NCBI GenBank assembly: GCA_964532425.1
Contig: CAZHIA010000002.1
Coordinates: forward strand, 169,798-233,797
DNA length: 64,000 nucleotides
Direction of reading: 5' to 3'
DNA from: an uncultured Candidatus Saccharibacteria bacterium
Lineage (GTDB): Bacteria; Patescibacteriota; Doudnabacteria; UBA920
Positions 6,138 to 62,081 of the stretch are shown here, one piece after another. The number at the start of each line of letters is the position of its first letter. Within the stretch, counting starts at the first letter, position 1. The notes below the pieces were generated by a model that saw only the letters and a program-made list of their open reading frames with translations, did no database searches and was not told where the DNA came from. The position numbers and the translations under genes are program-made.

Positions 6138-6527
6138 ATGAACGAAATTGTGAGTGAACATGTTTCGGCGTCCTTAGCTGCCATACAGGGTTTTCCTGTT
6201 GTTAGCTGTGGTATGGACATTGTTCATATTCCGACTTTCAGAGACCGCATGGTGCCAGCTGTCTTGGAGCGGACGCTGACCGATTACGAGCTTCGGGAAT
6301 TTCCCCGGCTCGAAAGCAAGGCGGGTCTGTTTGCCGCCAAGGAAGCGTTCATGAAAGCAGTTCACCGAAAGATCGACTGGCACGAAGTCTGGGTAGAGCG
6401 CAAGCTGAACGGACAGCCAGTCCTGCACAGCTTGTGCATGCCGGACGGATGTATTGCGCTGGTAACCATTTCACATGACGGCGATTATGCCGCCGCTGTA
6501 GTCTTGATCGGGAGGAAACCAGAATGA
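6138..6527 (+). CDS. acpS: holo-[acyl-carrier-protein] synthase (4'-phosphopantetheinyl transferase)
   Basis: Motifs 'GMDIVHI', 'FAAKEAFMKA' and 'ISHDGDYAAAVV' are present. There is an AGGGGG SD sequence. The TGA stop overlaps the next start (ATGA). Confidence 0.85.
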   Translation: MNEIVSEHVSASLAAIQGFPVVSCGMDIVHIPTFRDRMVPAVLERTLTDYELREFPRLESKAGLFAAKEAFMKAVHRKIDWHEVWVERKLNGQPVLHSLCMPDGCIALVTISHDGDYAAAVVLIGRKPE

Positions 6528-17079: not shown

Positions 17080-17095
17080 TCCGCCAGCTGGCGGA
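17080..17095. repeat. perfect 16-bp palindrome tccgccagctggcgga flanked by direct CCAATTTC repeats; the same 16-mer recurs at 60301-60316
   Basis: Read directly from the sequence, ~120 bp upstream of the DUF378 gene. Confidence 0.5.
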
Positions 17096-46682: not shown

Positions 46683-46757
46683 GGCCCATTCGTCTAGTGG
46701 CTAGGACATCTGGTTTTCAGCCAGGTAACGGGGGTTCGATTCCCCCATGGGCTACCA
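46683..46757 (+). tRNA. tRNA-Glu (anticodon UUC), 75 nt with an encoded CCA
   Basis: Manual fold: 7-bp acceptor stem (G1-U72 wobble), D-stem GTCT/GGAC, anticodon stem TCTGG/CCAGG with loop TTTTCAG (anticodon TTC), T-arm GGGGG-TTCGATT-CCCCC, discriminator A, CCA. Confidence 0.85.
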
Positions 46758-48258
46758 TCGATTTTTTACCACCCGAAAGGGTGGTTTTCGATTGGAAGAT
46801 ATGCGAGATTTTTGGGGTTGTAAATGTTAAATAGTTGTATACCGGCTTTTCCGGAAAGATCAAACCCATAAGCTTTGTCTTTTGCCAAAAGGTTGCCTGT
46901 CTCCAGTAGTTCGGCAGTTGCTCAATAAAGTTAAATACGAAAGTTACCGCTTCATCGATATCGAATTCTTCCAGGCGAGTTTCCCGGAGTTGGCTCTCCT
47001 TGTCGGCGATCTTCATTTTGACCGCTTCGAATTCGGTTTTAAAATCTTCGTCCGAGATGAGTCCGGTTTTTACCAGGCTAAATACTTTGGCCTTTTCTAA
47101 TTTAAGCTCATCGATCTCAGTTCGCAAAGTTGCGTAATGCTGGTTAAGGTCCGAATACTTGCCTTGCCATACATCCAAAATAACTTCTTTAAATGCGTTC
47201 AAGAGATCTTTCTTTGGGGTGATGTCCTCTAAAAATTTAGCGAACTCCTCTTCCAGTTTGGCTTTGGGTACAGACTTTTTGTAAGCGCATTGTTTGTAAT
47301 AGCAGCGGTAATACGGATAGCGAACACCTAACTTACCCACGCTGTACATAGCCGTTAAAGGTCTTCCGCAATAACTGCAAATAATCATATTCCTTAAAGG
47401 GAATTCCGCGTCATGCCGGGCATTGGCAATATATTGGCCTTTGGTGTAATGTCTTAATAACTTTTGGTTTTTGTAAAAAGTTTCCTCGCTGATCAAGGCT
47501 TCATGGGTTCCCCGGAATTCCTTACCGGCGTATTCAATTACGCCCATGTAGAATTTGCTGGACAGGAACTTATGCATGAGCTGGGCCGTAATTTCGCCGC
47601 CTAATGGGGTTTTTAAGCCGCGCGCGGTAACTTGTTTCCTTAACTCTTCTTCCGTCCAAATGCCGGTGGAAAATTCGTTTAAAAGATATTTAACCAACTC
47701 GGACCGCTCCGGATCTAAAATGATGGTCTTTTCTCCGTTTGGTTTTGTAAAATTCAAATAGCCCAATGTAACCCGATGCGGAAAGCGGCCGGATTCGGCG
47801 CATCTGATCATGCCTTCCTTTACGCGCTCGCTTTTAATGTCGTTATCGAATTGGGCAATGCTGGCCATCATGTTGCCCATAAGTCTTCCGGATGAAGTTT
47901 CGTCTACCGGCTCGGTAGCAGATAATATTTGCACATCCAAACCTTTGAAAAAAGACTTAATTTGATAGTAGTCTTCCGCGTTACGGGTTAAGCGGTCAAT
48001 TTTGTAAACCACTATGCAATTTATATTGTTCTTTTTACTAGCGCAAAATTTAAGCATATCCTGCAAGCCCGGACGGTCCGTAGTTTTGGCCGATTCACCT
48101 GCATCGGAAAAATATTTAACAATTTTAAAATTATTACTCTCCGCGAATTTCCTACAAACTTCTTTTTGGTTGTTTAAACTAAATCCGCGTTCGGCCTGGT
48201 CCGAAGTGGAAACGCGATAATAAATTACAGCTTTTTTATTGCCAATATTTTTTATCAT
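46717..48258 (-). CDS. large serine recombinase (resolvase catalytic domain, recombinase domain and zinc ribbon)
   Basis: 'AVIYYRVSTSDQ', 'IDRLTRN' and 'CSYCGRPL...YYRCYYKQC' are present. Start set to the internal ATG (aa 16 of the ORF). The 3' 41 nt overlap the tRNA on the opposite strand. Confidence 0.85.
   Translation of the reverse strand: MIKNIGNKKAVIYYRVSTSDQAERGFSLNNQKEVCRKFAESNNFKIVKYFSDAGESAKTTDRPGLQDMLKFCASKKNNINCIVVYKIDRLTRNAEDYYQIKSFFKGLDVQILSATEPVDETSSGRLMGNMMASIAQFDNDIKSERVKEGMIRCAESGRFPHRVTLGYLNFTKPNGEKTIILDPERSELVKYLLNEFSTGIWTEEELRKQVTARGLKTPLGGEITAQLMHKFLSSKFYMGVIEYAGKEFRGTHEALISEETFYKNQKLLRHYTKGQYIANARHDAEFPLRNMIICSYCGRPLTAMYSVGKLGVRYPYYRCYYKQCAYKKSVPKAKLEEEFAKFLEDITPKKDLLNAFKEVILDVWQGKYSDLNQHYATLRTEIDELKLEKAKVFSLVKTGLISDEDFKTEFEAVKMKIADKESQLRETRLEEFDIDEAVTFVFNFIEQLPNYWRQATFWQKTKLMGLIFPEKPVYNYLTFTTPKISHIFQSKTTLSGGKKSMVAHGGIEPPLPG
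46733..46757. repeat. attL core: 25-bp direct repeat (3' end of tRNA-Glu)
   Basis: ggttcgattcccccatgggctacca, identical to 60362-60386. Confidence 0.8.
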
Positions 48259-48411
48259 AATTGCATAGTTAAATGCTAAAGGGGCGGCCCCTGATTCACC
48301 CAACTCAACTGTTCCAAAAGGAATAGCTTTGCTGGCAAGGACCGCCCCTAAAGGCAGTAAAGCAAATAAAAACCTTTCGGAACTATTTAATTGAGTGGGT
48401 GAATATTCATA

Positions 48412-48606
48412 TTATACCTCAACCCACCTGACTTCGACAAGTACCTCTACCCATCTTTTTTCGTCATCCAGCCTTTTCTTCTTCCAAAAGTCAAAAGCCA
48501 TATCAGCAATCTGATACATTTGCATCCGGATTAATTCGGTTTCTTCATCGGAAAGCTCCGATCCGGCATGGCCTAATAATTTTTTGAATTTTGTTAAAGT
48601 TATCAT
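48412..48606 (-). CDS. small hypothetical protein
   Basis: 64-aa product; its start abuts the upstream gene's stop codon. Confidence 0.4.
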   Translation of the reverse strand: MITLTKFKKLLGHAGSELSDEETELIRMQMYQIADMAFDFWKKKRLDDEKRWVEVLVEVRWVEV

Positions 48607-48607
48607 T

Positions 48608-49177
48608 CTAAAATCCGATCCTCGATAATTGTTCGAATAAATTATCCAGTTTTATTTGCTTCTTCGTAGGCTTTCCCCGGTAATGAGTTTTAGTTATTTT
48701 TTCAGATAACTTGCTTATTTTTTGGTCCAGTTCAAAACCTTTCAGAATGTGAGGTCCCCGGAATTTTTTGCTTAAGTTCTTTGAGGCATAAACCAGCCGC
48801 TGGCAATGCCTACAGCAGAAATAGGCACCGTTTTTTGCTTTGTAGAGTACTCCCACGCGCTTGCCACAGGCTATAACCGGGCATAAAAACCACCAGCGGA
48901 ATCCTCCGTAAAAACATTTTGACCGGGCAAGTGATATGTTATAATCAATCCGTTTTTTACCCTCCTCGGGGTATATGTCATAAACGATCCGGAGATGGGG
49001 CTTTTGTTGATTTTCAAAGCTTGTCTGGATCGCAGCCATAAATTCATCGGCAGACAGCCACTCGGTCCAGGTAATAACTCCAGCCTTCTCCTCCTTCAAA
49101 TATTTATGCTGGCCCAGCCACCAAATTGAAATTTTGAAAGTTTCAAAATTTGAGAGAGAAGAAGAGGAAGACCCCAT
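48608..49177 (-). CDS. hypothetical zinc-ribbon protein
   Basis: 'CPVIACGKR...CCRHCQRL'. Confidence 0.45.
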   Translation of the reverse strand: MGSSSSSLSNFETFKISIWWLGQHKYLKEEKAGVITWTEWLSADEFMAAIQTSFENQQKPHLRIVYDIYPEEGKKRIDYNISLARSKCFYGGFRWWFLCPVIACGKRVGVLYKAKNGAYFCCRHCQRLVYASKNLSKKFRGPHILKGFELDQKISKLSEKITKTHYRGKPTKKQIKLDNLFEQLSRIGF

Positions 49178-49298
49178 ATTTTACCCATTTGTGGTTCCAA
49201 AAAACCGAAATCATTAGAGATCACAACGGCGAAAAAGGTTTATTGAATAAATTTACTCATTTTTTGCCTTTAACACAGTGTCAGATTTGCTTTATTGA

Positions 49299-51488
49299 TT
49301 AACTCGATAACTCCCTTATATTTTTACATTTCTCGCTCATTATCCAGCTAAATTCATCGGTTAAGCTGATAAATTTTTCGGGTTCTCCCACGCTGCCAAG
49401 ACCGTTTGCCGATAGATTACAAACCTTAAGAATTTTAAGTGCTTCCATTTCTTTGAGTGCTGTGGGCCGGGAACAGTTCAAAGCCTCCATAACTTCCTTT
49501 GTTGCCATTATTCCCTTAATATCTAGCAATGCTCGAAATAGCTTGGCTCTCGTTGTTGGCGCGCTATCGATTGAAATTTCAATGACTAACTTTAAATCAA
49601 AATTATTAATCTGTCGCCTGCCGCAAACTAACGCATGACCCCGGGCCAAGTTGTAGAATAACTGGTTAATTCGGTCCGGTTTTTCTATTACTGGCTGAGT
49701 GTACTCATATTCATTTCCGTCCACAGATTTATCTTTCCATACATTAATCACGCCGCGAAGCTTTGCTAAAAGTTGCGCGCATCGGGATATCATAACTACA
49801 GTCTCCCGATCGTCCTTAGATTTTTCCCATATCACGCCCTCAGGATTTTTAAACCATAAAGTTTGAAGAAAATCTTTTGTAATTTCTCTGCACTGTTTTT
49901 CTTTTTGTTTGTACGACTGATCAATTAACTGTTCGGCCAATTCGGTTTCACTTTTCTCTTTGGACAACATTTTTAAGAAAAACAGCCTGGACCCTAAATT
50001 GCCCATCATTTTCCATACACGCGGCGGTATAGGAGTAGAAGCGGCCAAAAGCATAAAAAGGTATTCGCCGACATATTGTCTTTGCCCATGAACTCCGCTA
50101 TCCGTATTCAACCCTTCCCCGTCCAATACGCGCGTTAAGATGCCTAATGACTCGTTTAAGTCATCATCCCTTTTCGAGAATAAGGTTGCTAAATCTCGGA
50201 TCATAAACATTTTATATTTTAAACGCGGCAATAAATCGATGTCCTTTAATTCCTCTTTGGAGACATTAGCTGAGTTGGACACAAACGAAGCCGGAGTAAA
50301 TTTGTCCGTGGCGTAAGTCAATCCTTCAATTTCAGAGAAGAAGTTTATTGCGATGGTTTTTCCGGATGAAGGCACGTCCACAAAAACTAAAGCAAACGGA
50401 TTTGTAACATCAGTTATTAAAATTTGGGCCATAATGGATAAACCGACTTCAGCTGGAAATTTTAATTCTGGAAAATTTTTTATCACCACACTCTTCCAAT
50501 CCGGAAAGGCTACTTCCCGGTCAATTTTATCGATTTTTTTAATACGTGGTAGTTCTTCCAAATTTAAGATTTCCTTAGCGTATTTGCTGGTTAAGTCTTC
50601 AATGTTTCCATCCAGCTTAATTAAAAAATCCGTTATATCGCCGCCTGTTCCGACTTCTTTAGGCAAAATAACTTTGTACAAGCTTTTATGCCCGGCTTCT
50701 TTAAATTTGTATATAAGTCTTTCGGCTCCTTCTCTTCCTGCTTTGTCATTATCAAAACAAACATAAATTGACTTTACGTTCAAAAGATTTTTTACCCAGT
50801 CATCCTTAAATGTTCCGGCCCCATGAGTGGATGTAACAGCACTGATGCCCCGGCCCACAAGTGCTAAACGATCTAATTCGCCCTCACAGATAATAATTTT
50901 TTCCGTACTGAATGGCACTGTTTCCCAATCGTATAACTGAGCTTCCCCGGAAGGGTAAGTCACTTTTTCTTTGCCTTCTTTTGGGTTTCTTCTTAGTTTA
51001 AAATATGCATAATCCCCACTTTGGTCTTTAATTGGTATAGTTATCCAAGTCTTGCCATAAAAATTGCCAAACCCTAATTTATATTGCTTGATGACAATAT
51101 CTGAAATTCCCCGGTCGTTTAGATAACGCCTAATATCATCTGGTATATTAGCGTGGCAACTTTCAACTAGCGCATTATCAAAATTTACATTATCGCTTTC
51201 ATTGTATTTTTGTTTTTTCGAACTTGGCTCTTTCCAATTTAAAGCAATATCTTTCAGTTCATCGCCCCAAAATTCGCGCAATGTATGAATGTTCCCCTGA
51301 GTACCGCATTTTTTACAATCGTACTGGCCTGTTTTTTCGTCAAAATATAAGTGTGCTTCTTTACCGGAACTGTCTTCATCACAACCACTAAACAAACAAT
51401 GAGTTACAAGTTCACCATTTGCGCGCTGGTATTTTACCCCTTTTCTGTCTAAATATTCCTTTATTGTTATGGTTTCAAAATTTTGCAT
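49299..51488 (-). CDS. DnaG-like primase (CHC2 zinc finger plus TOPRIM) fused to a P-loop NTPase region; island replication protein
   Basis: Zinc finger 'HCLFSGC...DCKKCG', TOPRIM 'IIICEGELD' and 'CFDNDKAGREGAERL', and Walker A 'DVPSSGKT' are present. Confidence 0.75.
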   Translation of the reverse strand: MQNFETITIKEYLDRKGVKYQRANGELVTHCLFSGCDEDSSGKEAHLYFDEKTGQYDCKKCGTQGNIHTLREFWGDELKDIALNWKEPSSKKQKYNESDNVNFDNALVESCHANIPDDIRRYLNDRGISDIVIKQYKLGFGNFYGKTWITIPIKDQSGDYAYFKLRRNPKEGKEKVTYPSGEAQLYDWETVPFSTEKIIICEGELDRLALVGRGISAVTSTHGAGTFKDDWVKNLLNVKSIYVCFDNDKAGREGAERLIYKFKEAGHKSLYKVILPKEVGTGGDITDFLIKLDGNIEDLTSKYAKEILNLEELPRIKKIDKIDREVAFPDWKSVVIKNFPELKFPAEVGLSIMAQILITDVTNPFALVFVDVPSSGKTIAINFFSEIEGLTYATDKFTPASFVSNSANVSKEELKDIDLLPRLKYKMFMIRDLATLFSKRDDDLNESLGILTRVLDGEGLNTDSGVHGQRQYVGEYLFMLLAASTPIPPRVWKMMGNLGSRLFFLKMLSKEKSETELAEQLIDQSYKQKEKQCREITKDFLQTLWFKNPEGVIWEKSKDDRETVVMISRCAQLLAKLRGVINVWKDKSVDGNEYEYTQPVIEKPDRINQLFYNLARGHALVCGRRQINNFDLKLVIEISIDSAPTTRAKLFRALLDIKGIMATKEVMEALNCSRPTALKEMEALKILKVCNLSANGLGSVGEPEKFISLTDEFSWIMSEKCKNIRELSS

Positions 51489-51515
51489 AAATTTTTATTT
51501 CGTAGAGGCTCGGGC

Positions 51516-51761
51516 TTAAAGCATGTTCGCTATAGCCTGAGTTAATTCTTTTAAGCCTTTTTCATACTGGCCGGGATGCAGGGCGAATATTCCGGAGTGG
51601 AATTTTGCTATTGCACTTATTAATTTATAGCTATAGGAAAAATTAAATATCACTTTATATTCCTTGCTATAAATATCAATTACGCGAATTGGAAACAAAG
51701 TACTAAGTTTTACTGCTAACTGAAGATCGCTAATTGGATATAGATTCCCTTGTTTAGGCAT
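51516..51761 (-). CDS. small hypothetical protein
   Basis: 81-aa ORF, AT-rich. Confidence 0.35.
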   Translation of the reverse strand: MPKQGNLYPISDLQLAVKLSTLFPIRVIDIYSKEYKVIFNFSYSYKLISAIAKFHSGIFALHPGQYEKGLKELTQAIANML

Positions 51762-51974
51762 AAATTTATTTTTAATTATTAAAACCTACTTTACCCCGGG
51801 CTGGAAGGTATGGAACCAGCCAAGGATATAGTAGGCTTTGCATACCTTTTGCTATTTACACAATGAACTATAGCAAAGGTAAAAATGAGCAAAATTAATT
51901 ATCACAATTTTTTGGCAACCTCTGTGGATATAACAAAAAAAGCCTGTTTTTACAGGCCAATTTGTTGTACCTAT

Positions 51975-52961
51975 TTATTTTTTTGATAAATTTGCCTCCT
52001 TTTTACGAAAACTATTCCAGCAACTTTCGGAACAAAACTGCCGTGGCACCCCATTCAAAGCATGGATGTTATCCAATGAAGAGTGCTTACCACAACACTC
52101 ACACTTATTTTTTGTCACCGCGATAACAGAAGGGATTTCAAACGTCTGATTTTCCTTACGTCTTTCCAAATAACATTTTCTATTTTCTGTTTGGTTACAG
52201 AAACTTTCCTTTTTTATCCTTTTTAAACTTTTACCACATCTGCCACATATAGTGGTATATTTATTTTTGCACTCGCTTCTTAATAGCTCCAAATCTGAAA
52301 TAATATCATCGTACCCAAAGGAGTCAACTACTAAAGGGAAGTACTTAGAAATGCACTGCTCGAGAAATTGAACAGCCTCAATTTTATCTTTTGGGATTTT
52401 TTTGGTATGGATGTTTATGATTTCCAAAATTTCATCAAAAGCAACATTAGGTAAATTTAAAATTTGTTTTCTTGTAAGATTATATTTTTGGATAAAATCT
52501 CTTATCTGTTTATTTTGAAAATCCTTATATTTTGGTAAAAATATTTTTTCAAATTTGTTATTTAAAGACAACCCCCTGTCACTTAGAGAGCGTAAGCGTT
52601 TCAATGCCCGATATGTAAATAATTTTTTATACTTATCTGAGTGCGAATTTTCAAAAGTTGCAAGAGATTCCTCATCTGCTGTCCTGATACATTCTTCAAT
52701 TTCATTTGTTCCAAAAATAGCACGTTGGCTATCCTGCCTCATAAAATCAATCGGATCAACACCTTCAAATATTTGATCATCAAATTCACTTTCGGCTTGT
52801 TTAAATACAGCTAAAAGAATAGTGCTAACGCTTGCTCCAATTTCTAATAAATAAAGCAAATCTTTATGTACCAACTGGTCTTCGTATTGCTGCAATAAAG
52901 ACTGATAAACCCGGGAAAACCGCTGGTAGGTTTTTTGGTAAATGTGTAATGAATTTTCCAT
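51975..52961 (-). CDS. hypothetical protein with a C-terminal Cys-cluster
   Basis: 'CGRCGKSL...CECCGKHS...CSESC'. Confidence 0.5.
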   Translation of the reverse strand: MENSLHIYQKTYQRFSRVYQSLLQQYEDQLVHKDLLYLLEIGASVSTILLAVFKQAESEFDDQIFEGVDPIDFMRQDSQRAIFGTNEIEECIRTADEESLATFENSHSDKYKKLFTYRALKRLRSLSDRGLSLNNKFEKIFLPKYKDFQNKQIRDFIQKYNLTRKQILNLPNVAFDEILEIINIHTKKIPKDKIEAVQFLEQCISKYFPLVVDSFGYDDIISDLELLRSECKNKYTTICGRCGKSLKRIKKESFCNQTENRKCYLERRKENQTFEIPSVIAVTKNKCECCGKHSSLDNIHALNGVPRQFCSESCWNSFRKKEANLSKK

Positions 52962-53256
52962 ACCTTTTTCTTTATTTTACTCCCTATTTCCAGTTTGGGA
53001 AATTTGCTGTAAAATATAGGTACAATTGAATAGAGTAGCCTAAACCTTGCAGTAATGCAGGGCATGGCGAAAAAATCCGGATAAGAACAGAGACGGTCAT
53101 CGTCTTGCTTTACTTATCCGGTTATCATCCGAAAGGGTGGTAGGCCTATCCCGAAAGGGAAAAGCCATTGCAAGCGGTGGCCCTTTTTGTTATCCGTATA
53201 AAATTAATAATCGAAGTTTATTTTAGAGAAGCAAAAATAATTTTATTTAAAAAGGT

Positions 53257-53775
53257 ATGAAAAGAGAATTGTGGAATTCAATTTTAAACTCATTGCCAGA
53301 TACGAGAGCCTCAATCATTGCACCAGAAGATGTTGAGGAAGCAGCGGATATGCTAGATGCAGACAATATAAATCATCAAAAATTCTTGTCTAATATGGAA
53401 GCGTTTTTTGCAGGGCCAAATTTTAAAACGCGCGCAATTTTACGGGGACAAAATATTGAAGAAGACATGACATCCTCGATGAAATTTTTTGCCGGAAGAA
53501 TTGACAAAAAAGCTCCAGCAATCCCCATATGGTTTTACAGCGCTTACCCTGATGTAATGAACTGGTTTACCGAAAAACAAAAACAGCTAATTTCTTCCCG
53601 GGATACTGATTTCATAACGGCCGAAAATTCCAAATTATATGGTATAAATATTTCTGATCCATTATTAAACATACAGAATATTACAAACAGTAAGGGCGAA
53701 ACCAAACCAAAGTATTTAAAAAATTTGGTACACAATTTTAAGATTACGTTTGGTCAAAAACTTGAAGCACAGTAA
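53257..53775 (+). CDS. hypothetical protein
   Basis: 172-aa product; first of a plus-strand run of genes. Confidence 0.45.
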   Translation: MKRELWNSILNSLPDTRASIIAPEDVEEAADMLDADNINHQKFLSNMEAFFAGPNFKTRAILRGQNIEEDMTSSMKFFAGRIDKKAPAIPIWFYSAYPDVMNWFTEKQKQLISSRDTDFITAENSKLYGINISDPLLNIQNITNSKGETKPKYLKNLVHNFKITFGQKLEAQ

Positions 53776-53789
53776 TTTTGCTTTTAAAT

Positions 53790-54104
53790 ATGGCAAGGAA
53801 AAATTATTATCCCATATTCCAGATAATCTCAATCATTTTGCTATTGCTGGCCATCCCTTCTGTCTGGCCTTACGGTGTTTATCAATTTGTAAAAATTGTT
53901 GTATTCTTAACGTGCATTTACAATATTTATATTTTGAAAGAGAAGGACCAGATTTGGACAATTTTGTTTATAGTATTAGCTCTCCTATTTAATCCCGTCG
54001 TTCCGATATATTTGTCTAAAAACTTATGGCAAATAATTGACGGCATTTCGGCAATAATCATTTTTACAAATTACGCTAAATTTAAAAAAATTATTAATCC
54101 TTAA
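53790..54104 (+). CDS. small membrane protein
   Basis: Three transmembrane helices. Start at the ATG (aa 5 of the ORF). Confidence 0.4.
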   Translation: MARKNYYPIFQIISIILLLLAIPSVWPYGVYQFVKIVVFLTCIYNIYILKEKDQIWTILFIVLALLFNPVVPIYLSKNLWQIIDGISAIIIFTNYAKFKKIINP

Positions 54105-54109
54105 AACAC

Positions 54110-54385
54110 ATGGGCGAGCACTGGCAAAAATTGCTTTTCAAAAACTTAAAACGTGAACCTAATTCTAAACCCCTGGTTTTTGAAATTTTATTTTTGCTTG
54201 GGGAAGAAAAACCTTCGGACCCGGTACAATATATCAAGGACTGGCTTTTAAGCCATCCAGCCGAAACAGAACGATTAAAAGACCAGGAATTGCTTAACAG
54301 GGAAGCTGAATTTATATATAAGCTTTCTACCGGCGAAATTCCTTTCCCGGAATATTGCACACGAGTATATAAAAAGATTGATTAA
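54110..54385 (+). CDS. small hypothetical protein
   Basis: 91-aa product. Confidence 0.4.
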   Translation: MGEHWQKLLFKNLKREPNSKPLVFEILFLLGEEKPSDPVQYIKDWLLSHPAETERLKDQELLNREAEFIYKLSTGEIPFPEYCTRVYKKID

Positions 54386-54456
54386 ATTTAACTCGCTAAA
54401 TATGCTATAATTTAAGCATAAATTAGCGAGTTTTTAATTTTAGTGTTGTCAAAAAA

Positions 54457-56730
54457 ATGACAAATTACGATTTCAAAAATTTATCTCCTCTGGACTTCGA
54501 GGTCCTAGTTAAAGACCTGCTGGAGGCGAAGTTAAAAATTAATTTAGAAAATTTTATTGCCGGTCCGGACGGAGGCGTTGATTTAAGGTATTGCTACGAC
54601 TCGAAAAATGAATTAGTGATCCAATGCAAAAATTATTTTGATTTCAACCAATTACTAAGAGTTTTAAAAAAGGAAGTTAAAAAAGTAAGAGAACTAAAAC
54701 CTAAGAGATATATTGTAGCCACCTCTGTCGGGCTGACTAGGCTACGAAAGGCCAAAATTCATGAGCTGTTTAAGCCGTTCATGCGTAAGCCATCTGACGT
54801 TTACGGGGCAAGCGATCTGAATTCCATAATATCTAAAAATAAGGATATTGAGCGGTCCCACTTTAAGCTCTGGCTATCCAGTACCAATATTCTAAATACC
54901 ATTGTTCACAGTAAAGTCGTCAACCAGAGCCGTTTCGAGATGGATAGGATAAAGGACGCTGTAAAAGTTTATGTCCCAAATGAAAGTTTTAATGAAGCTC
55001 TTAATATCTTGCAGCAAAGACATGCTGTAGTAATTTGCGGCATCCCCGGTATCGGCAAATCCACATTAAGCCGTATACTGGCTTACCATTATTTAGCCAA
55101 TGGTTTTGACGAGTTTATTTATATTTCAAATTCCATTTCAGAAGCCTATGAGCTTTACGAGGATGGGAAAAAACAGGTATTTTTCTTTGACGATTTTTTA
55201 GGGAAACGGCTTTTGGAAGAAAATCTGGAAACAAACGAAGATCAAAATATCTTACGTTTTATGGAAAAGGTCGCGGATTCAGAGGATAAAATTTTGATTC
55301 TGGCCACAAGGGAGTATATCTTAAACCAAGCAAAGGAAAAATTTGAAAATTTAAACCAACACCGGGTGCAGTTATCGAAGTGCATTTTAGATCTGAAAAA
55401 ATACACAAATTTTGTACGCGCAAAAATTCTATACAACCATTTGTTTTTTTCTAAACTGCCGGAAAAATACATTGAAAATTTAGTATACCATAAAAATTTT
55501 CTCGATATAATCAAACACAGAAATTATAATCCCCGGATAGTTCACACGATCACGCAAGATCAAGATGTTTGGAAAAATATCTCACCTGAAAATTTTTACG
55601 ACAAATTTATAGAATATCTTGATAAGCCATTCAGTATATGGGAACATGTATTTTCGCATCAAATCTCGCCACTTTCCCAGGCCCTTCTTCTTATCCTGGC
55701 CCAAACAGACACCCCAATATTGAAAGATGATCTCGCGGATGCGGTTTCCGCGTTCGGAGCTAAGTTTGGCAATAAGTATGGTTTTAAGTTTAATGAGCGG
55801 GATTTTGAACATGCCCTAAGAGAATGCGAGAACACGTTTATAACCATAGACAAGGACCCAAATAACCACCTGTATATAGATTTCCAAAATCCTTCAATTC
55901 AGGATTTTTTGATTTTGTATATTAGCCAGGACGAAAAACTTACATTTGACCTGATTACGGCCGCCCATTTTTTTAACCAAGCAATTAACATGCTTTCGAA
56001 GCCGATCAATAAATCATCCACGATTGAACCGGCACAACTCAAACGTGAAGTTAAGCAAAAAGTAATGGAAAATTTTGCTATACTTCGAAGTTCTGGACTT
56101 ACTAAAACCACTATGGCGGGTAAAGCTGATGACTGGTGGTGGTCAAAAGCCAATGACACCGAACTATCCAGGCTAAACATACTGTTCAATAAATTTGGGC
56201 AGGATCAGGACGTGAGGCAACTTATTAAAGAACGAATTATTGCGATGGATGAAAAGAAGTTTAACAACGCTGATGTGCCGTACTATGTCAACCTTCTTGC
56301 TGGCCTGGGCAAATCCATAGGCAAGGATCCTGCCGAACTAATTAAAAACCTGTCCTCCAGCATTTACTTTACCGACGGCATCGATCAGCTTGAGAGGCTT
56401 TCTAAAGTCTACCCTAAGGAATACCGTGCTTTTATCAAGGGCACTGAATTTTCAAATTTAGTAGACTATACCATAGATAATGAAATGGAAAATACTGACG
56501 ACGATGGTTTAGAAGAATTAAGAGACAACGTACAATCTTTGCAAAGAAGGTTTAACCTGGACCTATCGGAAAAACTCGACACTATCCAGGAGATGTTAGG
56601 AGATGCCCGGTCCCGACACTATGCTGAGATGGACCCCGACGATTACCGGGTTAATTACGATGACCACCGAGAAATTTCTGACGGCGAATTAAGGGCCATG
56701 TTCGACACCCTTCGAACCGGCCAAAAATAA
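54457..56730 (+). CDS. Mrr-like restriction-endonuclease (PD-(D/E)xK) domain fused to a STAND-type P-loop NTPase and helical C-terminal region (Avs-like antiviral ATPase candidate)
   Basis: N-terminus 'LSPLDFEVLVKDLL...GPDGGVDL...VIQCKNY' (Mrr_cat-like). Walker A 'VICGIPGIGKSTL'. Walker B 'VFFFDDFLG'. 'ILILATRE' sensor-1-like motif. About 350 aa of helical C-terminus. Confidence 0.7.
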   Translation: MTNYDFKNLSPLDFEVLVKDLLEAKLKINLENFIAGPDGGVDLRYCYDSKNELVIQCKNYFDFNQLLRVLKKEVKKVRELKPKRYIVATSVGLTRLRKAKIHELFKPFMRKPSDVYGASDLNSIISKNKDIERSHFKLWLSSTNILNTIVHSKVVNQSRFEMDRIKDAVKVYVPNESFNEALNILQQRHAVVICGIPGIGKSTLSRILAYHYLANGFDEFIYISNSISEAYELYEDGKKQVFFFDDFLGKRLLEENLETNEDQNILRFMEKVADSEDKILILATREYILNQAKEKFENLNQHRVQLSKCILDLKKYTNFVRAKILYNHLFFSKLPEKYIENLVYHKNFLDIIKHRNYNPRIVHTITQDQDVWKNISPENFYDKFIEYLDKPFSIWEHVFSHQISPLSQALLLILAQTDTPILKDDLADAVSAFGAKFGNKYGFKFNERDFEHALRECENTFITIDKDPNNHLYIDFQNPSIQDFLILYISQDEKLTFDLITAAHFFNQAINMLSKPINKSSTIEPAQLKREVKQKVMENFAILRSSGLTKTTMAGKADDWWWSKANDTELSRLNILFNKFGQDQDVRQLIKERIIAMDEKKFNNADVPYYVNLLAGLGKSIGKDPAELIKNLSSSIYFTDGIDQLERLSKVYPKEYRAFIKGTEFSNLVDYTIDNEMENTDDDGLEELRDNVQSLQRRFNLDLSEKLDTIQEMLGDARSRHYAEMDPDDYRVNYDDHREISDGELRAMFDTLRTGQK

Positions 56731-56743
56731 TCTTATTTAGCAT

Positions 56744-57301
56744 ATGGAAAACGAGGTCAAACAAATAGTCGAAAAATCTATCCTGGAGATAATTGAGGAA
56801 TTTAATAGTAATCCGGACGTGTTTCTTACGGAAGAAGATGTAAGGTGCCATCTAGTCGCTAAACTTTTACAGAATAAACAGCTATCGACTCTGGCCGATA
56901 CCGCAGACGGCTCAAAATCCATTCCGATTCATACCGAAGTACGGTGGTACGGGGCAAGCGGAAAATTACGTTACAGATCCGATATTGTTCTGCTTAAAAC
57001 AAATTCTTTAAAAACAAAAAGATCCTTCCACTTGCCCACCAAAGGATATTCGTTTGATGAATTCTACTCGATTATAGAAGTTAAATTGCGCCGCATACGT
57101 CCGAGGAGCGACAAAAAATATTTAACTCTCATTAAAGAAGATTTTGAACGTTTACAAGCTTTGATAGAAGATACACCTGGAGTAAACGCAACTTTTCATT
57201 TGATCTGCTTTGATAAAAAATCTGATCTTTCTCCTAACCTGGACCGGTATTATCATGATCCCAAAATAAAATTCCAGTATATTTTTAAAGATTGTCGCTA
57301 A
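56744..57301 (+). CDS. small PD-(D/E)xK-like nuclease-fold protein (tentative)
   Basis: 'RSDIVLL' ... 'IIEVKL' give a D...E-x-K spacing. The gene lies 13 nt after the NTPase gene. Confidence 0.4.
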   Translation: MENEVKQIVEKSILEIIEEFNSNPDVFLTEEDVRCHLVAKLLQNKQLSTLADTADGSKSIPIHTEVRWYGASGKLRYRSDIVLLKTNSLKTKRSFHLPTKGYSFDEFYSIIEVKLRRIRPRSDKKYLTLIKEDFERLQALIEDTPGVNATFHLICFDKKSDLSPNLDRYYHDPKIKFQYIFKDCR

Positions 57302-57311
57302 AAATACGGGT

Positions 57312-58265
57312 ATGAACTTTCTAAGAAAAATATTTGCCAAGAAAAACCTTATTTCCAGGAGCACAACTCCAACAAATGAACTAAGCACCCACGTTGCAAT
57401 TCCAGAACCTACTAAATCTTTACTTTGGATAACGAACGAAAACGCTTCTAAAATCAGATCAGCCGGATCAATCCGAATCACTATCACTCTATCTGATACA
57501 GGGGTAAAAACTACTCAGGGAGACCCCGATGACAGTAATAATTTTTTCTCTGAGCCGAGCCTTATTTGGACCAAGTTGCCGGTTTTGCCGAACTCCAGCC
57601 TGGAAACAAAACCGATGTATTACCCTTCCTACTCCGGCCTTTCCCCGGCTCACCGGTACCAATACTTAAAATGGCTGGCCAATGTTGAACAGCCGACAAA
57701 TTTAAGTTACGTATTCCTTTATTACTATGGTTTAGAAAGACACCTACTTATCGGAAACTACGATGGCGCAGTAGATGAAATATTACGCCTGATAAAATTC
57801 CACGATCGGGGAACTTTTAAAAGCTACGCAACGACGGCTCTATTAGTAGCTAGCCTTGAGCGAAAAAGACCGGATATTTTTCAAAAGGCTCCTTTTTTAT
57901 TGGAACAACTTACCAATGAAGGCATACTGCTTAGATTCCTAACAGGTAATAGCCTTACAGCAAAAGAGGTGATGAGCTTAGCCTCGCAAGTTGGCTTTAA
58001 AAATAAACGCTACATTAAATTGCGCCCGGTAGATTTTGAGGAAGAACTACAAAATAGAATTGACCGCTCTGAAATTTCAATAAAAAATACCATAACTTTA
58101 TATTCTTTAAAAACGGAAAACTCTACAGCTTTTGCTAACCTCTCTATACCCGATCACATCAGGACAATAAAAATACCTCAAATCTTATACGATGAAAGAT
58201 TTAAGGCAAATCTCCTGGCTCTTTTAGAACAAACACACGAAGCCATCAAAAATAGGCCACGTTGA
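57312..58265 (+). CDS. hypothetical protein with a TerB-N-like motif (tentative)
   Basis: 'YYPSYSGLSPAHRYQYLKWL...YVFLYYYGLERHLL'. The gene lies 10 nt after the preceding gene. Confidence 0.4.
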   Translation: MNFLRKIFAKKNLISRSTTPTNELSTHVAIPEPTKSLLWITNENASKIRSAGSIRITITLSDTGVKTTQGDPDDSNNFFSEPSLIWTKLPVLPNSSLETKPMYYPSYSGLSPAHRYQYLKWLANVEQPTNLSYVFLYYYGLERHLLIGNYDGAVDEILRLIKFHDRGTFKSYATTALLVASLERKRPDIFQKAPFLLEQLTNEGILLRFLTGNSLTAKEVMSLASQVGFKNKRYIKLRPVDFEEELQNRIDRSEISIKNTITLYSLKTENSTAFANLSIPDHIRTIKIPQILYDERFKANLLALLEQTHEAIKNRPR

Positions 58266-58532
58266 ATAATTAATGCTTATTTTCCTATAAGCGTACAGAA
58301 TATCATCCTGTGTTTGCCTGTTTTAATACCAAACAAGGTATAGTAAGTAATATCTACTTCGCTAACAGTAAATGATTCAACCTTAGGCGTTAAAATCAAC
58401 GAGGCCGGAAATTTCGGCATGTCCTGAGAAGCTATGGCCGTACAAGAATTGGATCCAAGATCGGGATTTTTAATCACTATTTTTGGAATGAAAATACCGA
58501 CTAATAGAACAAGTAACGCAATAACAATCCAC

Positions 58533-59357
58533 CTACTCATACAAGCTCCTGGTATCATTAAAACCCATAATGTCTCCGGCCGGTGATATAACCACCTGTA
58601 CGAACGGAGCCATATCCTCGCCTTGCGGCTTGTTTTTTAAAACCCATTGGAAGGCGGCTTGCTTGCCGTCTTTGGATGTTTCCGTATAAGTAAAATCAGA
58701 ACTGTTTTTAATTTGCTCGAAATCGGAGACATGTTTGGCTAAAAACTGGTAGCCAATTTGTTTGAGTCGAGTTTGAGTAAGTTCCGGCTTTACGCGGTAC
58801 GCGTCTGCTGAACCCTGGGCCGGAGCGAACTGAACAACTTTGTTTGAAGCCGGATCAACTGAATATTCCATGCCTTTATCGTCCCGGTAAACGTCCACAT
58901 TTTTACCGTTGCTCGAATATAAATTATCCCGAATGTCCCAAAGCGTAATTTGCAAAGACTGGTCTTCCCGGATGTCTTTAATATTTGCCGTTGCCGTAGC
59001 GATGGCTTGCGGATCTTTGTTTTGAATCTGGAGCCGCTTAACCGTATCCTGCAAGTTGGCCCTCTGTTGATTATATCTTAAGTCGTAATGTTCGCACTGG
59101 ACCGTATCATCCGGAGTATCGGTTAAACAGCCGTGCCGGTAGCGATAATTGATTAAGGAATTAAGGTCCGATTGGATAGCCTGGATATCTTTGTTGGTTT
59201 TTAGCCAGACCGGAATCATGCCGTCTACTTCCTGTTTTTCTGAAACTTCAGCGACAAGCGTTTTATTATTTAGTTTTAGCTGTCGGTATATGCCAAAACC
59301 TATTAGGGCAAGAACGACTACCCCACATCCAATGTATAAATATTTTTTTCTGGTCAT
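58533..59357 (-). CDS. membrane-anchored hypothetical protein
   Basis: Start at the ATG (aa 15 of the ORF), which overlaps the upstream gene's stop (ATGA). A transmembrane helix follows. Confidence 0.45.
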   Translation of the reverse strand: MTRKKYLYIGCGVVVLALIGFGIYRQLKLNNKTLVAEVSEKQEVDGMIPVWLKTNKDIQAIQSDLNSLINYRYRHGCLTDTPDDTVQCEHYDLRYNQQRANLQDTVKRLQIQNKDPQAIATATANIKDIREDQSLQITLWDIRDNLYSSNGKNVDVYRDDKGMEYSVDPASNKVVQFAPAQGSADAYRVKPELTQTRLKQIGYQFLAKHVSDFEQIKNSSDFTYTETSKDGKQAAFQWVLKNKPQGEDMAPFVQVVISPAGDIMGFNDTRSLYE

Positions 59358-59635
59358 AAAAATATTCCCATAAGGATCAAAGCCAAAATCGGACCCCAAA
59401 CTAACGCGTAGATATTCCTAATTTGATCAAAATTAAGAGGCACCTTCATCATCTGGTACCTTGGCGATTCCAATGTTAAAAATTTTTGTTTAACTTTGAT
59501 AACCCGATATGAGTCTAGCGGAAATACCGGCAAAAAAAGCAGTATTATCCACTTAGTAGCAATATATGAACCGTCGGCAGGATTAATCTCTCGCTTGCCA
59601 TAGAGCGTTGTCCCAAAACCATTGAAAGATAACAT
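59354..59635 (-). CDS. small membrane protein
   Basis: 93-aa product with two transmembrane helices. Confidence 0.4.
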   Translation of the reverse strand: MLSFNGFGTTLYGKREINPADGSYIATKWIILLFLPVFPLDSYRVIKVKQKFLTLESPRYQMMKVPLNFDQIRNIYALVWGPILALILMGIFL

Positions 59636-60040
59636 AGTCGTATAATTAAGTACGCTTTAAGTATATCCCTTTAGCGAATTAAAATAAATAGCTCTTAACT
59701 ACAGCCAAAATACGATACTACGATGATTACGATATTTTATTTAAAATATCAGAAAGCCAAATTTTGAAGTTTCCTAAATTTTTGTGCGAATAATTTTGGG
59801 GCCCCCTGGGGCGAATTTTCTATAAACGGTCGTCTTGCCCTATGCCCCGGCACCGGGGGTCGATAAAGCAAAACTGACACTGTGATAGAGGGTTGTAACA
59901 AAAAAAGACCGCAAGGGCCTTTTTGAGCGTTAAGGGCTAGGATTGAGTAGCGAGTAAAGGAATTAAGGCCCGAAATTGCTTTATTTCCTCTACCAAAAAA
60001 TGTAAGTTCTGAAAACTGAAGGCTACCATAAACAAAAATG

Positions 60041-60074
60041 CCTCACCCTTGTGGTGGGGCTTTTTTGTTTATCG
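60041..60074 (+). terminator. rho-independent terminator-like hairpin
   Basis: gcctcacc(cttgt)ggtggggc followed by tttttt. Confidence 0.45.
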
Positions 60075-60361
60075 ATGTTCATCGATGGGGAATCGAACGG
60101 GCAGCAGTGAGCTAGTGGAGGCCAGCAGGCCGACACGTAGCGAACGCCGAAGAAGTGCTACGGATAGCACTTCTTTGCTGCCCCGGACAACGAAGCCCGC
60201 CTGGGGCGGGCGAGGCGGAATTCCCCCATGGGCAAGGGGATACAGCCGAGCGATCTAGGAACTGCCACCGGCAGTTTATCGCAATCCATGGACAAGTGAG
60301 TCCGCCAGCTGGCGGACGAGCGCGACAATTCCCCCATGAATCATCGAATGTAGCCGTAGGC
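60075..60361. repeat. GC-rich hairpin-dense block with nested degenerate copies of the tRNA 3' end (island right-arm/attR region)
   Basis: Partial copies 'attcccccatgggc' near 60222 and 'attcccccatg' near 60327 precede the full repeat. Four consecutive inverted repeats are present, including the 16-bp palindrome tccgccagctggcgga. Confidence 0.5.
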
Positions 60362-60386
60362 GGTTCGATTCCCCCATGGGCTACCA
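60362..60386. repeat. attR core: 25-bp direct repeat
   Basis: Identical to 46733-46757. It has no 5' acceptor-strand partner, so it is a 3' fragment only. Confidence 0.8.
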
Positions 60387-60551
60387 CTAACAACCTCATT
60401 CCCCAGAATGGGGTTTTTAGTTTGGTTTTATTGATGCGAAATGAATTTTCCAAAATTTAGGTGTGATTGATATATTTTTGAAATATACTTATAGTTAAGG
60501 TAAATTAGTTTTCAATCCCAGTTTGGTACCCAAAAGCTAAAATAAATTGTT

Positions 60552-61283
60552 ATGGAAAATAATGAATTTGGAACTTTAATGCAGCGTCTTAAAGACATGC
60601 ATAATCGGTATTATAAAACTATACATGCTTTTTATGCCTATGAAGCTCTTCGTGAAGTTATAGCCCCAAATATTGTTGGTGAACACATGGCTCATGGAAA
60701 TGTAGAGGTATTTAATAAGTATAAAAACTTTTTTCTCCCAGCCAAAGAATCTTTAAAAGTATATTTTTTCTTAGAGCTCGCAAAATTATTTGATGCCTCT
60801 AAACAATCCTTGCACATTAATAAAATTATTAATTTTACTGAAAGTAACATTGAAAATTTAACTGTTGATGCATTCCAAGAATATAATCAGGACCGAGAAC
60901 TTGTTACTCAATTGATCAAAGAGTACAAAGGCATGTCGCATAAAGATCTTACAGAAATCAGAAACTCCCTCACTAAGCATCAGGTGGTCCTGGAAAAGTT
61001 GGAAGACTATAGAAACAAATGGCTTGTGCATGATGATTTAAATAAACCCGAGATACCTTCTATAACAGGAGAGGAAATAAAAAGCTTACTTGAAATAATA
61101 GAAAAAATTCTGAATTCTTTCACGGGTAAATTAAATAGTGAAAGTTGGTTATATAGTTATGCGGAAGACGAGACTAAATCTGACGTTCGTTTGGTTATTG
61201 ATCACCTGCGGAGATTTGAACCCTATAGAATAAAAGAGATTGAAGATGAGTATAAAGAGAATTTAAAAAAATTTTCCGTTTAG
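60552..61283 (+). CDS. hypothetical protein (possible HEPN-like R-x5-H motif)
   Basis: 243-aa AT-rich product containing 'RNKWLVH'. Confidence 0.4.
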   Translation: MENNEFGTLMQRLKDMHNRYYKTIHAFYAYEALREVIAPNIVGEHMAHGNVEVFNKYKNFFLPAKESLKVYFFLELAKLFDASKQSLHINKIINFTESNIENLTVDAFQEYNQDRELVTQLIKEYKGMSHKDLTEIRNSLTKHQVVLEKLEDYRNKWLVHDDLNKPEIPSITGEEIKSLLEIIEKILNSFTGKLNSESWLYSYAEDETKSDVRLVIDHLRRFEPYRIKEIEDEYKENLKKFSV

Positions 61284-61437
61284 CCATTCTTTATCAAAAA
61301 TAAGTAAACTTCCCTCACCAAAGCCAAATAAGTTTTCCAGCCGTTCAGACGGTATCTACCACAAAAAACTCGAACATAATTCGAGTTTTTGTTTGCTAAT
61401 ATAATTTTATTATTAGTAAAGGTATTTTTACAGCTAA

Positions 61438-61893
61438 TTGAATATATGGCATAATTATAATATGCAAAACAATAGGGAAACCCATATTTTACCTGAAAAC
61501 GAAATAGTGAACGCAATAGCGCAAAATGCTCAGTGGGAATTGAATTCTCGTGGAAATGATGTCATAACTCTAAGTTATGGAAGGAAAGATTTAATGATTG
61601 TTGCCAGTAAACGTGATAATTCGGTTATTACCAGAGTTGAAAATATGAGGGAGTCTGGCCAAGAAGAAAATGAAACCACCTTGTTATATACTGCAGCTAA
61701 AAAAATAATGGGGCAGCTTGCTCAAAAATACAAAAGCGATTTAAAGTATACTATAAGTACTTCGGATGAAAGTATGAATGCTTGGGCACAAAGTAAAGGT
61801 GTTAACATTTTTAATTTACAACCGGCTTCTGATATCCGTGATGATTTTGATCATCATTATCGAGCAACTATAGCATATAAACCAGAGGAATAG
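61438..61893 (+). CDS. hypothetical protein
   Basis: 151-aa AT-rich product. Confidence 0.4.
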   Translation: MNIWHNYNMQNNRETHILPENEIVNAIAQNAQWELNSRGNDVITLSYGRKDLMIVASKRDNSVITRVENMRESGQEENETTLLYTAAKKIMGQLAQKYKSDLKYTISTSDESMNAWAQSKGVNIFNLQPASDIRDDFDHHYRATIAYKPEE

Positions 61894-62081
61894 GTTTTAA
61901 AACTATAATGCAGATTGCAAAATAATGATTTAGTTAGGTGGCCATTCAAACATTGATTAAATTTAAATAAACACCTTTTATCAAAGCCAAAAATTTTTTC
62001 ACCTGTCTCGACTTGGTCTACCAACAAAAGAACACTGCTTCATAGTAGTGTTCTTTTATTGGTAATTAATATAGGATGTGG

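Follow-up and report, generated by a model that had tools for sequence, protein, structure and literature searches.

The window analysed here is a 64-kb stretch of contig CAZHIA010000002.1 from a patescibacterium (the closest named relatives of the host RND pump all belong to Patescibacteria). At positions 60075–60361 it contains a GC-rich, hairpin-dense block that adjoins an island integrated at a tRNA-Glu gene and encoding a large serine recombinase. Our analysis indicates, with a probability of roughly 70%, that this block represents 1.7 tandem copies of a structured RNA element, conserved among Patescibacteria and not catalogued before, and that the element is a non-autonomous cassette which regenerates the site of insertion. 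The unit, as it recurs across the family, consists of a terminator, a short spacer, a GC-rich RNA of about 160 nt and the last 17–25 nt of the preceding tRNA, for a total of about 215 bp. Unit lengths vary from 149 to 187 nt, and the mean GC content of the units is 58% versus 38% in their flanks.

Homologues were collected from metagenomes with a search pattern built from three shared motifs, which returned 78 loci, about 60 of them clear homologues. A covariance model, R1, detects 92 copies at E < 1e-6, spread over 68 contigs that come almost entirely from Patescibacteria. RNAalifold derives 16 consensus pairs from an alignment of 60 sequences, with compensatory changes in 15 of the 16. In the R1 alignment, the 24 named pairs are paired in 91.6% of cells as against 71.4% in column shuffles, and the covariation score is 0.498 versus 0.168; none of 500 shuffles reaches 0.498, and a control in which the partners were slid by 1–3 columns scores no higher than 0.076. 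Compensatory changes are found in every helix, among 87 distinct sequences.

Both termini of the RNA are related to the neighbouring tRNA. The 5' end, GGGGAAUCGAAC, is complementary to the tRNA T-arm and pairs with the RNA's own tRNA-derived 3' end to form helix P0, in which 5' GGGGAAU faces 3' AUUCCCC. P0 closes a junction of helices P1–P4, several of them capped by GGAA tetraloops; P1 closes a three-way junction with P2 and P3, and P4 is a 3' hairpin. An invariant UCGAAC precedes P1 and an invariant GGACAA follows it, and it is possible that the two form a non-canonical GAAC/GGAC helix. The P0 pair at columns 6/306 switches from A–U to G–C in five sequences and to U–A in one, without mismatches, exactly where the neighbouring tRNA (Cys, Ser) has a different T-loop. 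The 3' end of the unit copies whichever tRNA lies upstream, and the 5' anti-T-arm segment changes along with it, to GGAGUCGAAC behind tRNA-Cys and to GGAUUCGAAC behind tRNA-Ser; in some copies the 3' end has diverged from the tRNA beside it. The strand of the RNA is that of the tRNA: G–U outnumbers A–C by 34 to 15 in P1–P3, and among stable tetraloops GNRA sequences number 14 on the plus strand and 0 on the minus strand. No reading frame is open across the family, and length indels are not multiples of three.

The window block displays these features in one complete unit (A) and one 5'-truncated unit (B), whose parts are listed in Table 1. Taken alone, unit A folds in a single-sequence minimum-free-energy prediction into all of the family helices (z = −4.4), and it possesses P0–P4, for which the family shows compensatory changes, the anti-T-arm 5' end, GGACAA and the copy of the tRNA end. 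Unit B matches the family in part; it lacks the 5' motif, the 5' strand of P1 and P2, and its 3' module resembles by eye that of L061 and L092. The terminal 25-nt copy of the tRNA end is preceded by GTAGGCGG, similar to the GAGGCGG junction of the family. Overall, GC content is 58–62% across 60100–60399 and 27–42% in the flanks, in agreement with the description of the block in the first-pass annotation, and the fold energy of the block is −147.6 kcal/mol, with z = −5.8 on the plus strand and −4.3 on the minus strand relative to shuffles.

The sequence features that the annotation had read from the letters are all present, though with a different meaning. Its four inverted repeats are all present and prove to be P3 and P4 of unit A, AAGAAGTGCTA/TAGCACTTCTT and GCCCGCC(TGG)GGCGGGC, and P3 and P4 of unit B, CTGCC(ACC)GGCAG at 60262–60274 and a 16-bp palindrome at 60301–60316. 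The two internal copies of the tRNA 3' end that it regarded as decayed, ATTCCCCCATGGGC at 60220–60233 (14 of 14 positions) and ATTCCCCCATG at 60328–60338, are genuine homologues of that end. A homologous GC-rich block occupies the corresponding position in three related islands, and both copies align to the 3' module of such blocks; they are therefore unit ends and not random scars. The terminator hairpin to the left of the block (T1) is confirmed, and the two open reading frames (ORFs) predicted across the block are indeed artefacts: the string VAHGGIEPP lies in the minus-strand ORF, and no frame is open in most family copies. Six-frame translation of the block revealed no homologues in predicted-protein databases; the block is structured and non-coding. 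The suggestion of a stack of serial integration scars survives only insofar as the units, one complete and one 5'-truncated, are stacked; decaying scars would not form a conserved family with compensatory changes in every helix. Absent from the annotation was GGGGAATCGAAC at the start of the block (60087–60098), a sequence exactly complementary to the T-loop and 3' T-stem of the tRNA, which forms a perfect 12-bp inverted repeat with GTTCGATTCCCC (60363–60374).

The 16-bp palindrome recurs, as had been noted, at 17080–17095, in an unrelated intergenic spacer, and it also forms helix tips in L096, L098 and L113. A second GC-rich perfect palindrome, CCTGCCTGCCGGCAGGCAGG, is found in L051, L061, L092 and L093. 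Both palindromes appear as insertions at hairpin tips, in helices that differ from unit to unit, and resemble very small palindromic insertion elements. In a comparison with repetitive extragenic palindromes and bacterial interspersed mosaic elements, the recurring 16-bp palindrome corresponds only to the tip of P4 in unit B, not to the whole block.

The element belongs to no described family. ARAGORN and Rfam agree on the tRNA-Glu at 46683 as the sole tRNA gene of the window, and ARAGORN finds neither a cloverleaf nor a transfer-messenger RNA (tmRNA) in the block. A comparison of the block with Rfam, a check that the first-pass annotation had proposed, gave no family match at the gathering threshold; with the cutoff relaxed to E ≤ 10, the sole result was a 7.8-bit beta_tmRNA fragment that covers the T-arm copy. 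On 16 unit-bearing loci Rfam 15 reports tRNAs only, and on L122 at E ≤ 10 terminator-like noise only. A tmRNA, a permuted tmRNA and an intron-containing tRNA were considered and dismissed on the negative ARAGORN and Rfam results and the lack of a 5' acceptor strand. Pattern scans of viral contigs, with a closing-helix pattern and then with the family pattern, returned 0 matches each; BLAST searches of phage and plasmid collections gave no match, and no description of the element was found in the literature.

Among the 79 copies of the unit not cut by a contig edge, 40 lie 44–60 nt behind a complete tRNA on the same strand, with a terminator hairpin between the two (Glu-CUC 17, Glu-UUC 8, Gly-UCC 6, Cys-GCA 4, Gly-GCC 2, and one each for Ser, Ala and Arg). 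Another 11 follow a preceding unit in tandem arrays with a period of about 220 bp, and 28 follow a degenerate remnant of a tRNA end plus a terminator. Many arrays hold partial units. The unit stands behind 2 of 14 unselected tRNA genes, and its presence is polymorphic at orthologous loci: between tRNA-Cys and a cluster of DnaA boxes it is present in L061, L093, L112 and L145 and absent in six other loci (L038, L043, L049, L054, L055 and L137). Such facultative presence and repeated acquisition identify the unit as a facultative insertion and not a housekeeping RNA. The DnaA-box cluster (TGTGGATAA), probably oriC, lies no more than some 80 nt downstream of tRNA-Cys(GCA) in many contigs of Patescibacteria.

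Two further proposals were rejected. Copies that share a contig are only 61–86% identical, except for the pair in L059, which argues against recent intragenomic copying. A partner protein encoded beside the units finds no support in their neighbours, which are heterogeneous, include housekeeping genes and contain no recurrent family. A check of the block-bearing metagenome loci, as distinct from those in genome assemblies, revealed an integrase beside the unit in one locus only, L109.

The relation of the unit to the island was clarified by the right ends of islands and cassettes. About 20 of the 28 copies behind remnants are preceded by a conserved AT-rich right end of 75 nt, ...AAAATTTTGAGAAATTTCAGACTTTAAG continuing directly into ACTAC, in which repeated AATTTC motifs lead to GACTAC and the terminator. 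An nhmmer profile of this end detects 60 copies, in islands or cassettes (loci L032–L158) and often several in series on one contig, as in L096 (3293/1887/813, minus strand) and L111 (2062/2950/5943, plus strand). Between serial right ends lie short integrase-less cassettes that encode GNAT proteins, a methyltransferase, an acyltransferase, CYTH with Fic, or R.Pab1 with an N6-methylase. At integrase-ascertained loci, a unit follows 5 of 27 right-end junctions and a plain terminator follows the other 22. One right end joins differing subtypes of terminator and unit, and one terminator-plus-unit occurs behind a tRNA in L145 and behind right ends in L032 and L143. Since one right end joins varied subtypes or plain terminators, the crossover is placed at GACTAC, the extreme 3' end of the tRNA, with terminator and unit on the target side. 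A target-side position of the unit is thus strongly indicated, and it upholds the suggestion of the first-pass annotation that the block is host-derived.

It follows that island 1 of the window would end at 60020–60029. The right junction is most likely GGCTACCAT at 60021–60029, as judged from sequence, and not the exact 25-bp repeat GGTTCGATTCCCCCATGGGCTACCA (46733–46757 and 60362–60386; none expected by chance). The right copy of that repeat, which had been taken for attR, is the structured element's own 3' end. The 9-mer had been suspected of being a further tRNA remnant, and it is a real one: GGCTACCAT occurs three times in the window versus 0.41 expected. Its distance to unit A is 58 nt, and the norm in the 40 tRNA-adjacent loci is 44–60 nt. 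The ends of related islands are of this kind as well.

The 3' end of the unit is itself strongly indicated to be a secondary attachment site. In L059, L109 and L053 a unit is followed immediately by an integrase, and seven contigs (L137, L129, L116, L101, L106, L113 and L061) have cassettes placed between their units. Insertion of the AbiU2 cassette of the window behind the terminal tRNA-end copy is strongly indicated as well; the AbiU2 gene recurs at 90% DNA identity in a different genomic context in L159 (122–1772), and in three Logan contigs in all. The probable right junction of this cassette is TTGGTCTACCA with its terminator. The match of TTGGTCTACCA to the tRNA end, with 2 mismatches, is not significant alone, and the argument is one of position and of the adjoining terminator.

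The serine recombinase belongs to a large family, with 442 homologues at E ≤ 1e-20, nearly all in Patescibacteria. An overlap between the gene and the 3' end of a tRNA (Glu, Ala, Lys or Arg) occurs at 79 genome loci, and in the window the antisense strand of the T-arm supplies the final codons of the gene. The integrated form ends in ...MVAHGGIEPPLPG (528 aa), and reconstruction from the inferred attP gives a protein of 545 aa with a longer tail of different sequence. Because all 14 homologues inspected (among P0002–P0047) end in GIEP-like peptides encoded by the T-arm, it appears that integration rewrites the C-terminus of the recombinase. The far end of a related island is visible in L014, L059, L061, L032 and L051; a GC-rich block is found there each time, starting with GG(G/A)GAATCGAAC and ending with GAGGCGGAATTCCCC plus the acceptor 3' strand. 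The generalization that every island far end abuts a unit was abandoned: it arose from the method of detection, and the right-end profile revealed the 22 of 27 junctions without a unit. Two further observations concern these islands. A 267-aa ORF beside the integrase in L059 and L109 displays HUH (HYH) and YxxKY motifs typical of rolling-circle Rep proteins, as read from the sequence by motif only. In L048 (about 6314–6370, minus strand) the right-end motif directly precedes the 3' end of the integrase gene, an attP-like P-core-P' joint that suggests tandem islands or a circularly permuted contig.

The layout of the locus is given in Table 1. AT-rich DNA (33–42% GC) extends from tRNA-Glu to about 62.4 kb, and island 1 also codes for a Toprim primase-like protein, an nSTAND3/Mrr protein and a TerB_N protein (Pfam). 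Logan contig L162 is 100% identical to the window over 58095–62030, so that an assembly error peculiar to a single data set does not account for the arrangement. Small hairpins like the leader hairpin of unit A are also present in the spacers of other loci. Two additional features lie within island 1. A LOOT RNA (Rfam RF03000, 72.7 bits versus a gathering score of 46.4) occupies 53037–53166 on the plus strand, flanked by divergent ORFs at 51975–52961 (minus) and 53257–53775 (plus). A GC-rich patch (55% GC) at 59795–59930 on the plus strand, with hairpins GGGGCCCCCTGGGGC and CCCCGGCACCGGGG and a terminator-like hairpin after it at about 59906–59927, may be another small RNA.

Table 1. Features of the tRNA-Glu locus and of the two structured units, in window coordinates
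Feature	Position	Strand	Basis or remark
tRNA-Glu(UUC)	46683-46757	+	ARAGORN; Rfam tRNA 60.1 bits; anchors the whole array
GGCTACCAT, left copy; probable crossover core of island 1 (attL)	46750-46758	+	9-mer identical to 60021-60029
Large serine recombinase, island 1	46717-48258	-	Pfam Resolvase + Recombinase + Zn_ribbon_recom; identical to P0001, 513 aa
Island 1	46758-60020		AT-rich
GGCTACCAT, probable true right junction (attR core) of island 1	60021-60029	+	precedes the former native tRNA terminator
T1, bidirectional terminator hairpin between tRNA-end remnant and unit A	60028-60072	+	inverted repeat; terminator scan 60040-60060 + T-run
Small leader hairpin ATCGATG-TT-CATCGAT, immediately 5' of unit A	60071-60086	+	read off the sequence
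Unit A, complete structured element	60087-60238	+	86.9 bits with model R1, whose seed included this sequence
Unit A, P0	60087-93/60220-26	+	
Unit A, P1	60099-105/60177-83	+	
Unit A, P2	~60107-60146	+	
Unit A, P3	60150-60175	+	
Unit A, invariant GGACAA	60185-90	+	
Unit A, P4	60195-60211	+	
Unit A, tRNA-end copy AATTCCCCCATGGGC	60219-33	+	
Unit B, 5'-truncated copy	60230-60346	+	R1, filters off: 24.1 bits, E = 4e-10 for a 176-nt stretch
Unit B, J2/3 segment CGAGCGA		+	retained
Unit B, P3	60260-60276	+	
Unit B, GGACAAG	60290-96	+	
Unit B, P4	60300-60317	+	18-bp palindrome
Unit B, tRNA-end copy AATTCCCCCATG	60327-38	+	
Terminal 25-nt copy of tRNA-Glu 3' end	60362-60386	+	exact repeat of 46733-46757
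T2, terminator hairpin 3' of terminal tRNA-end copy	60392-60420	+	terminator scan
AT-rich integrase-less cassette	60387-62012	+	GC 28-36%; AbiU2-type HEPN gene 60552-61283 (Pfam HEPN_AbiU2); ORF 61438-61893
TTGGTCTACCA, degenerate tRNA-end remnant, then terminator	62013-62057	+	hairpin 62030-62053 + TTTT
Host genes including DinB	62058 onward		

These observations can be accommodated by the following scheme. The unit would be a small non-autonomous cassette that spreads horizontally, with copies accumulating at tRNA 3' ends through successive site-specific insertion. Each insertion would supply the tRNA with a terminator, add a folded RNA that is expressed from the tRNA strand, and provide a fresh copy of the tRNA-type attachment site (attB). 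Since attB would be regenerated at the DNA level, arrays of islands and cassettes could grow without touching the tRNA itself.

Several points weigh against this scheme. The apparent invariance of the three motifs is partly a matter of ascertainment, because the search pattern fixed them; the check was provided by 16 copies found independently of the pattern, most of which retain the three motifs. No convincing promoter of the sigma-70 type is found between T1 and unit A, and the structure could in principle act in single-stranded DNA. Because the ends of the unit resemble attB and not attP, its movement should not be possible through the canonical attP × attB reaction of the serine recombinase. 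The right arm of the window island does not match the 75-nt right-end profile, and the junction assigned to it is founded on the 9-bp identity and the spacing. In L059, two 100% identical terminator-plus-unit copies flank the island, an arrangement that would be explained more easily if the island carried the unit.

Carriage by the island is the essence of one reading offered in the first-pass annotation, in which the block is an attP-derived arm of the serine-recombinase island, 60362–60386 is attR, and the block supplies accessory recombinase sites. The exact 25-bp direct repeat with the tRNA, the inverted T-arm copy at the start of the block, the five related island ends that abut a unit and the identical units on either side of the L059 island would all suit such an arm. 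It is nevertheless unlikely: 40 units follow tRNAs, with an integrase detected at L109 alone among the block-bearing metagenome loci, to which the check was limited, and 22 of the 27 right-end junctions at integrase-ascertained loci lack a unit. Moreover, a right end joins different unit subtypes, the terminator-plus-unit at the tRNA of L145 reappears behind right ends in L032 and L143, and the 3' arm of the unit resembles attB and not the conserved P arm. Nor are large serine recombinases known to require accessory sites. Another possibility is that the RNA ends, complementary to both strands of the T-arm and acceptor segment of the tRNA, work like a bridge RNA, as guides or helpers by which the attachment site is marked or opened for a recombinase. 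The first 12 nt of the RNA are antisense and the last 17–25 nt sense to one tRNA segment, each end varies with the local tRNA, UCGAAC is conserved without a partner within the unit, and units are found at integration hot spots. This proposal must be judged improbable, given that no recombinase gene is consistently nearby, that the resident enzyme is a standard large serine recombinase that reads DNA through protein domains, that P0 pairing alone accounts for 7 of the 12 nt, and that most right-end junctions have no unit.

Covariation alone cannot separate RNA from single-stranded DNA, and the structure might therefore serve as a single-strand origin or priming signal for excised islands, which code for primase-like proteins (Toprim, Prim-Pol) and an HUH Rep-like protein. 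Most units, however, are solitary in chromosomes beside tRNAs and housekeeping genes, the unit lies outside the probable island boundary, and GNRA tetraloops and an excess of G–U pairs are typical of RNA; TAGCG-like strings, as in ssoA-type origins, are not conserved across the family. A role in single-stranded DNA is thus highly improbable. The notion that the block is non-functional debris, an accumulation of decaying tRNA-end duplicates and hairpins from repeated integration and excision, draws on the truncation of unit B, the partial units of many arrays and the drift of some 3' ends from the local tRNA. It is more improbable still in view of the compensatory changes in every helix among 87 distinct sequences, the conservation of architecture and tetraloops, and a GC content of 58% in genomes of 38%. 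Finally, excision of a circle through the 25-bp repeat would place the recombinase in frame with the block and yield a protein of 606 aa with an alternative C-terminus. The frame is continuous and stop-free down to 60112, but the extension abounds in Cys, Trp, Arg and Pro, does not look like protein, lacks conservation and has no homologues; the homologous recombinases are all about 507–520 aa long, indels are not multiples of three and no frame is open across the family. This coding reading is effectively refuted.

A more far-reaching role may also be considered. The free 3' tail of the RNA is perfectly complementary to the last ~19–20 nt of the recombinase mRNA in the integrated state, and its two termini correspond to one and the other strand of the attachment site; these matches, read from sequence, hint at an interaction between the RNA and the recombinase system. 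In the boldest reading, the unit would be the RNA/DNA platform of an integron-like gene-cassette system of Patescibacteria, driven by a serine recombinase and anchored on tRNA 3' ends, in which each unit regenerates the attachment site and the RNA takes an active part in choosing or opening it. Such a platform is quite unlikely; were it real, no earlier example would be known of RNA assisting a serine recombinase at any step. Any influence of the RNA on recombination or on recombinase expression would link RNA structure to serine-recombinase biology, with relevance to mobile elements and recombinase engineering.

The consequences of the finding are broader than a single locus. A widespread and well-supported structured RNA family is added to the very small catalogue of non-coding RNAs of the Patescibacteria, and its design, in which both RNA termini are copied from the neighbouring tRNA, is unusual. 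The calling of island boundaries at such tRNA genes is corrected, in that the longest direct repeat is not the recombinase junction. The arrays reveal an accretion of cassettes at tRNA 3' ends that collects defence and accessory genes in organisms with tiny genomes.

Comparison with known systems brings out both kinship and novelty. LOOT, GOLLD, ROOL and other orphan Rfam motifs are likewise GC-rich, covarying and tetraloop-rich RNAs of uncultivated lineages that occur near integrases, phage genes or tRNAs. The present unit differs from them in matching no Rfam model, in having tRNA-derived termini (anti-T-arm at the 5' end, tRNA 3' end at the other) and in being an insertion unit that carries its own terminator and forms arrays. 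The bridge RNAs or seekRNAs of IS110/IS1111 elements offer another parallel, as RNAs of about 150–180 nt that lie at the edge of a mobile unit and are complementary to both target strands. Here there is no DEDD recombinase, no recurrent neighbouring protein family and no donor-binding part, and the majority of copies are not close to any recombinase gene; complementarity resides in the two ends of the RNA, joined to one another as P0, whereas a bridge RNA uses two internal loops.

With integrons (attI/attC) the system shares the serial arrangement of short integrase-less cassettes at one chromosomal site, each with a conserved recombination end, and a cargo of accessory and defence genes (GNAT, methyltransferases, a restriction-modification pair, Fic, AbiU2). 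It departs from them in the use of a serine instead of a tyrosine enzyme, in its anchor, the 3' end of a tRNA, in cassette ends that are either the 75-nt AT-rich right end or the structured unit in place of attC hairpins, and in the terminator that precedes every cassette. Cis-mobilizable elements (CIMEs) have been described at tRNA-gene attachment sites for the integrative and conjugative elements (ICEs) ICESt1 and ICESt3 of Streptococcus thermophilus, where they take part in tandem accretion; they arise from ICEs by deletion, depend on tyrosine integrases for their movement and show no conserved RNA fold. Like CIMEs, the units are short integrase-less segments between direct repeats of a tRNA-type attachment site: tRNA-end repeats of 17–25 nt flank each terminator-plus-RNA unit, which contains no ORF. 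They also adjoin integrase-bearing islands, form tandem arrays and offer an extra attachment site to incoming elements. Mobilization of the units in trans by a resident integrase may be suggested, indirectly, by their polymorphic presence at orthologous tRNA-Cys loci and by the divergence of neighbouring copies within arrays. What distinguishes them from CIMEs is a length of only about 215 bp with a covarying 160-nt structure, ends that resemble attB instead of attL/attR hybrids, and a co-resident enzyme that is a large serine recombinase.

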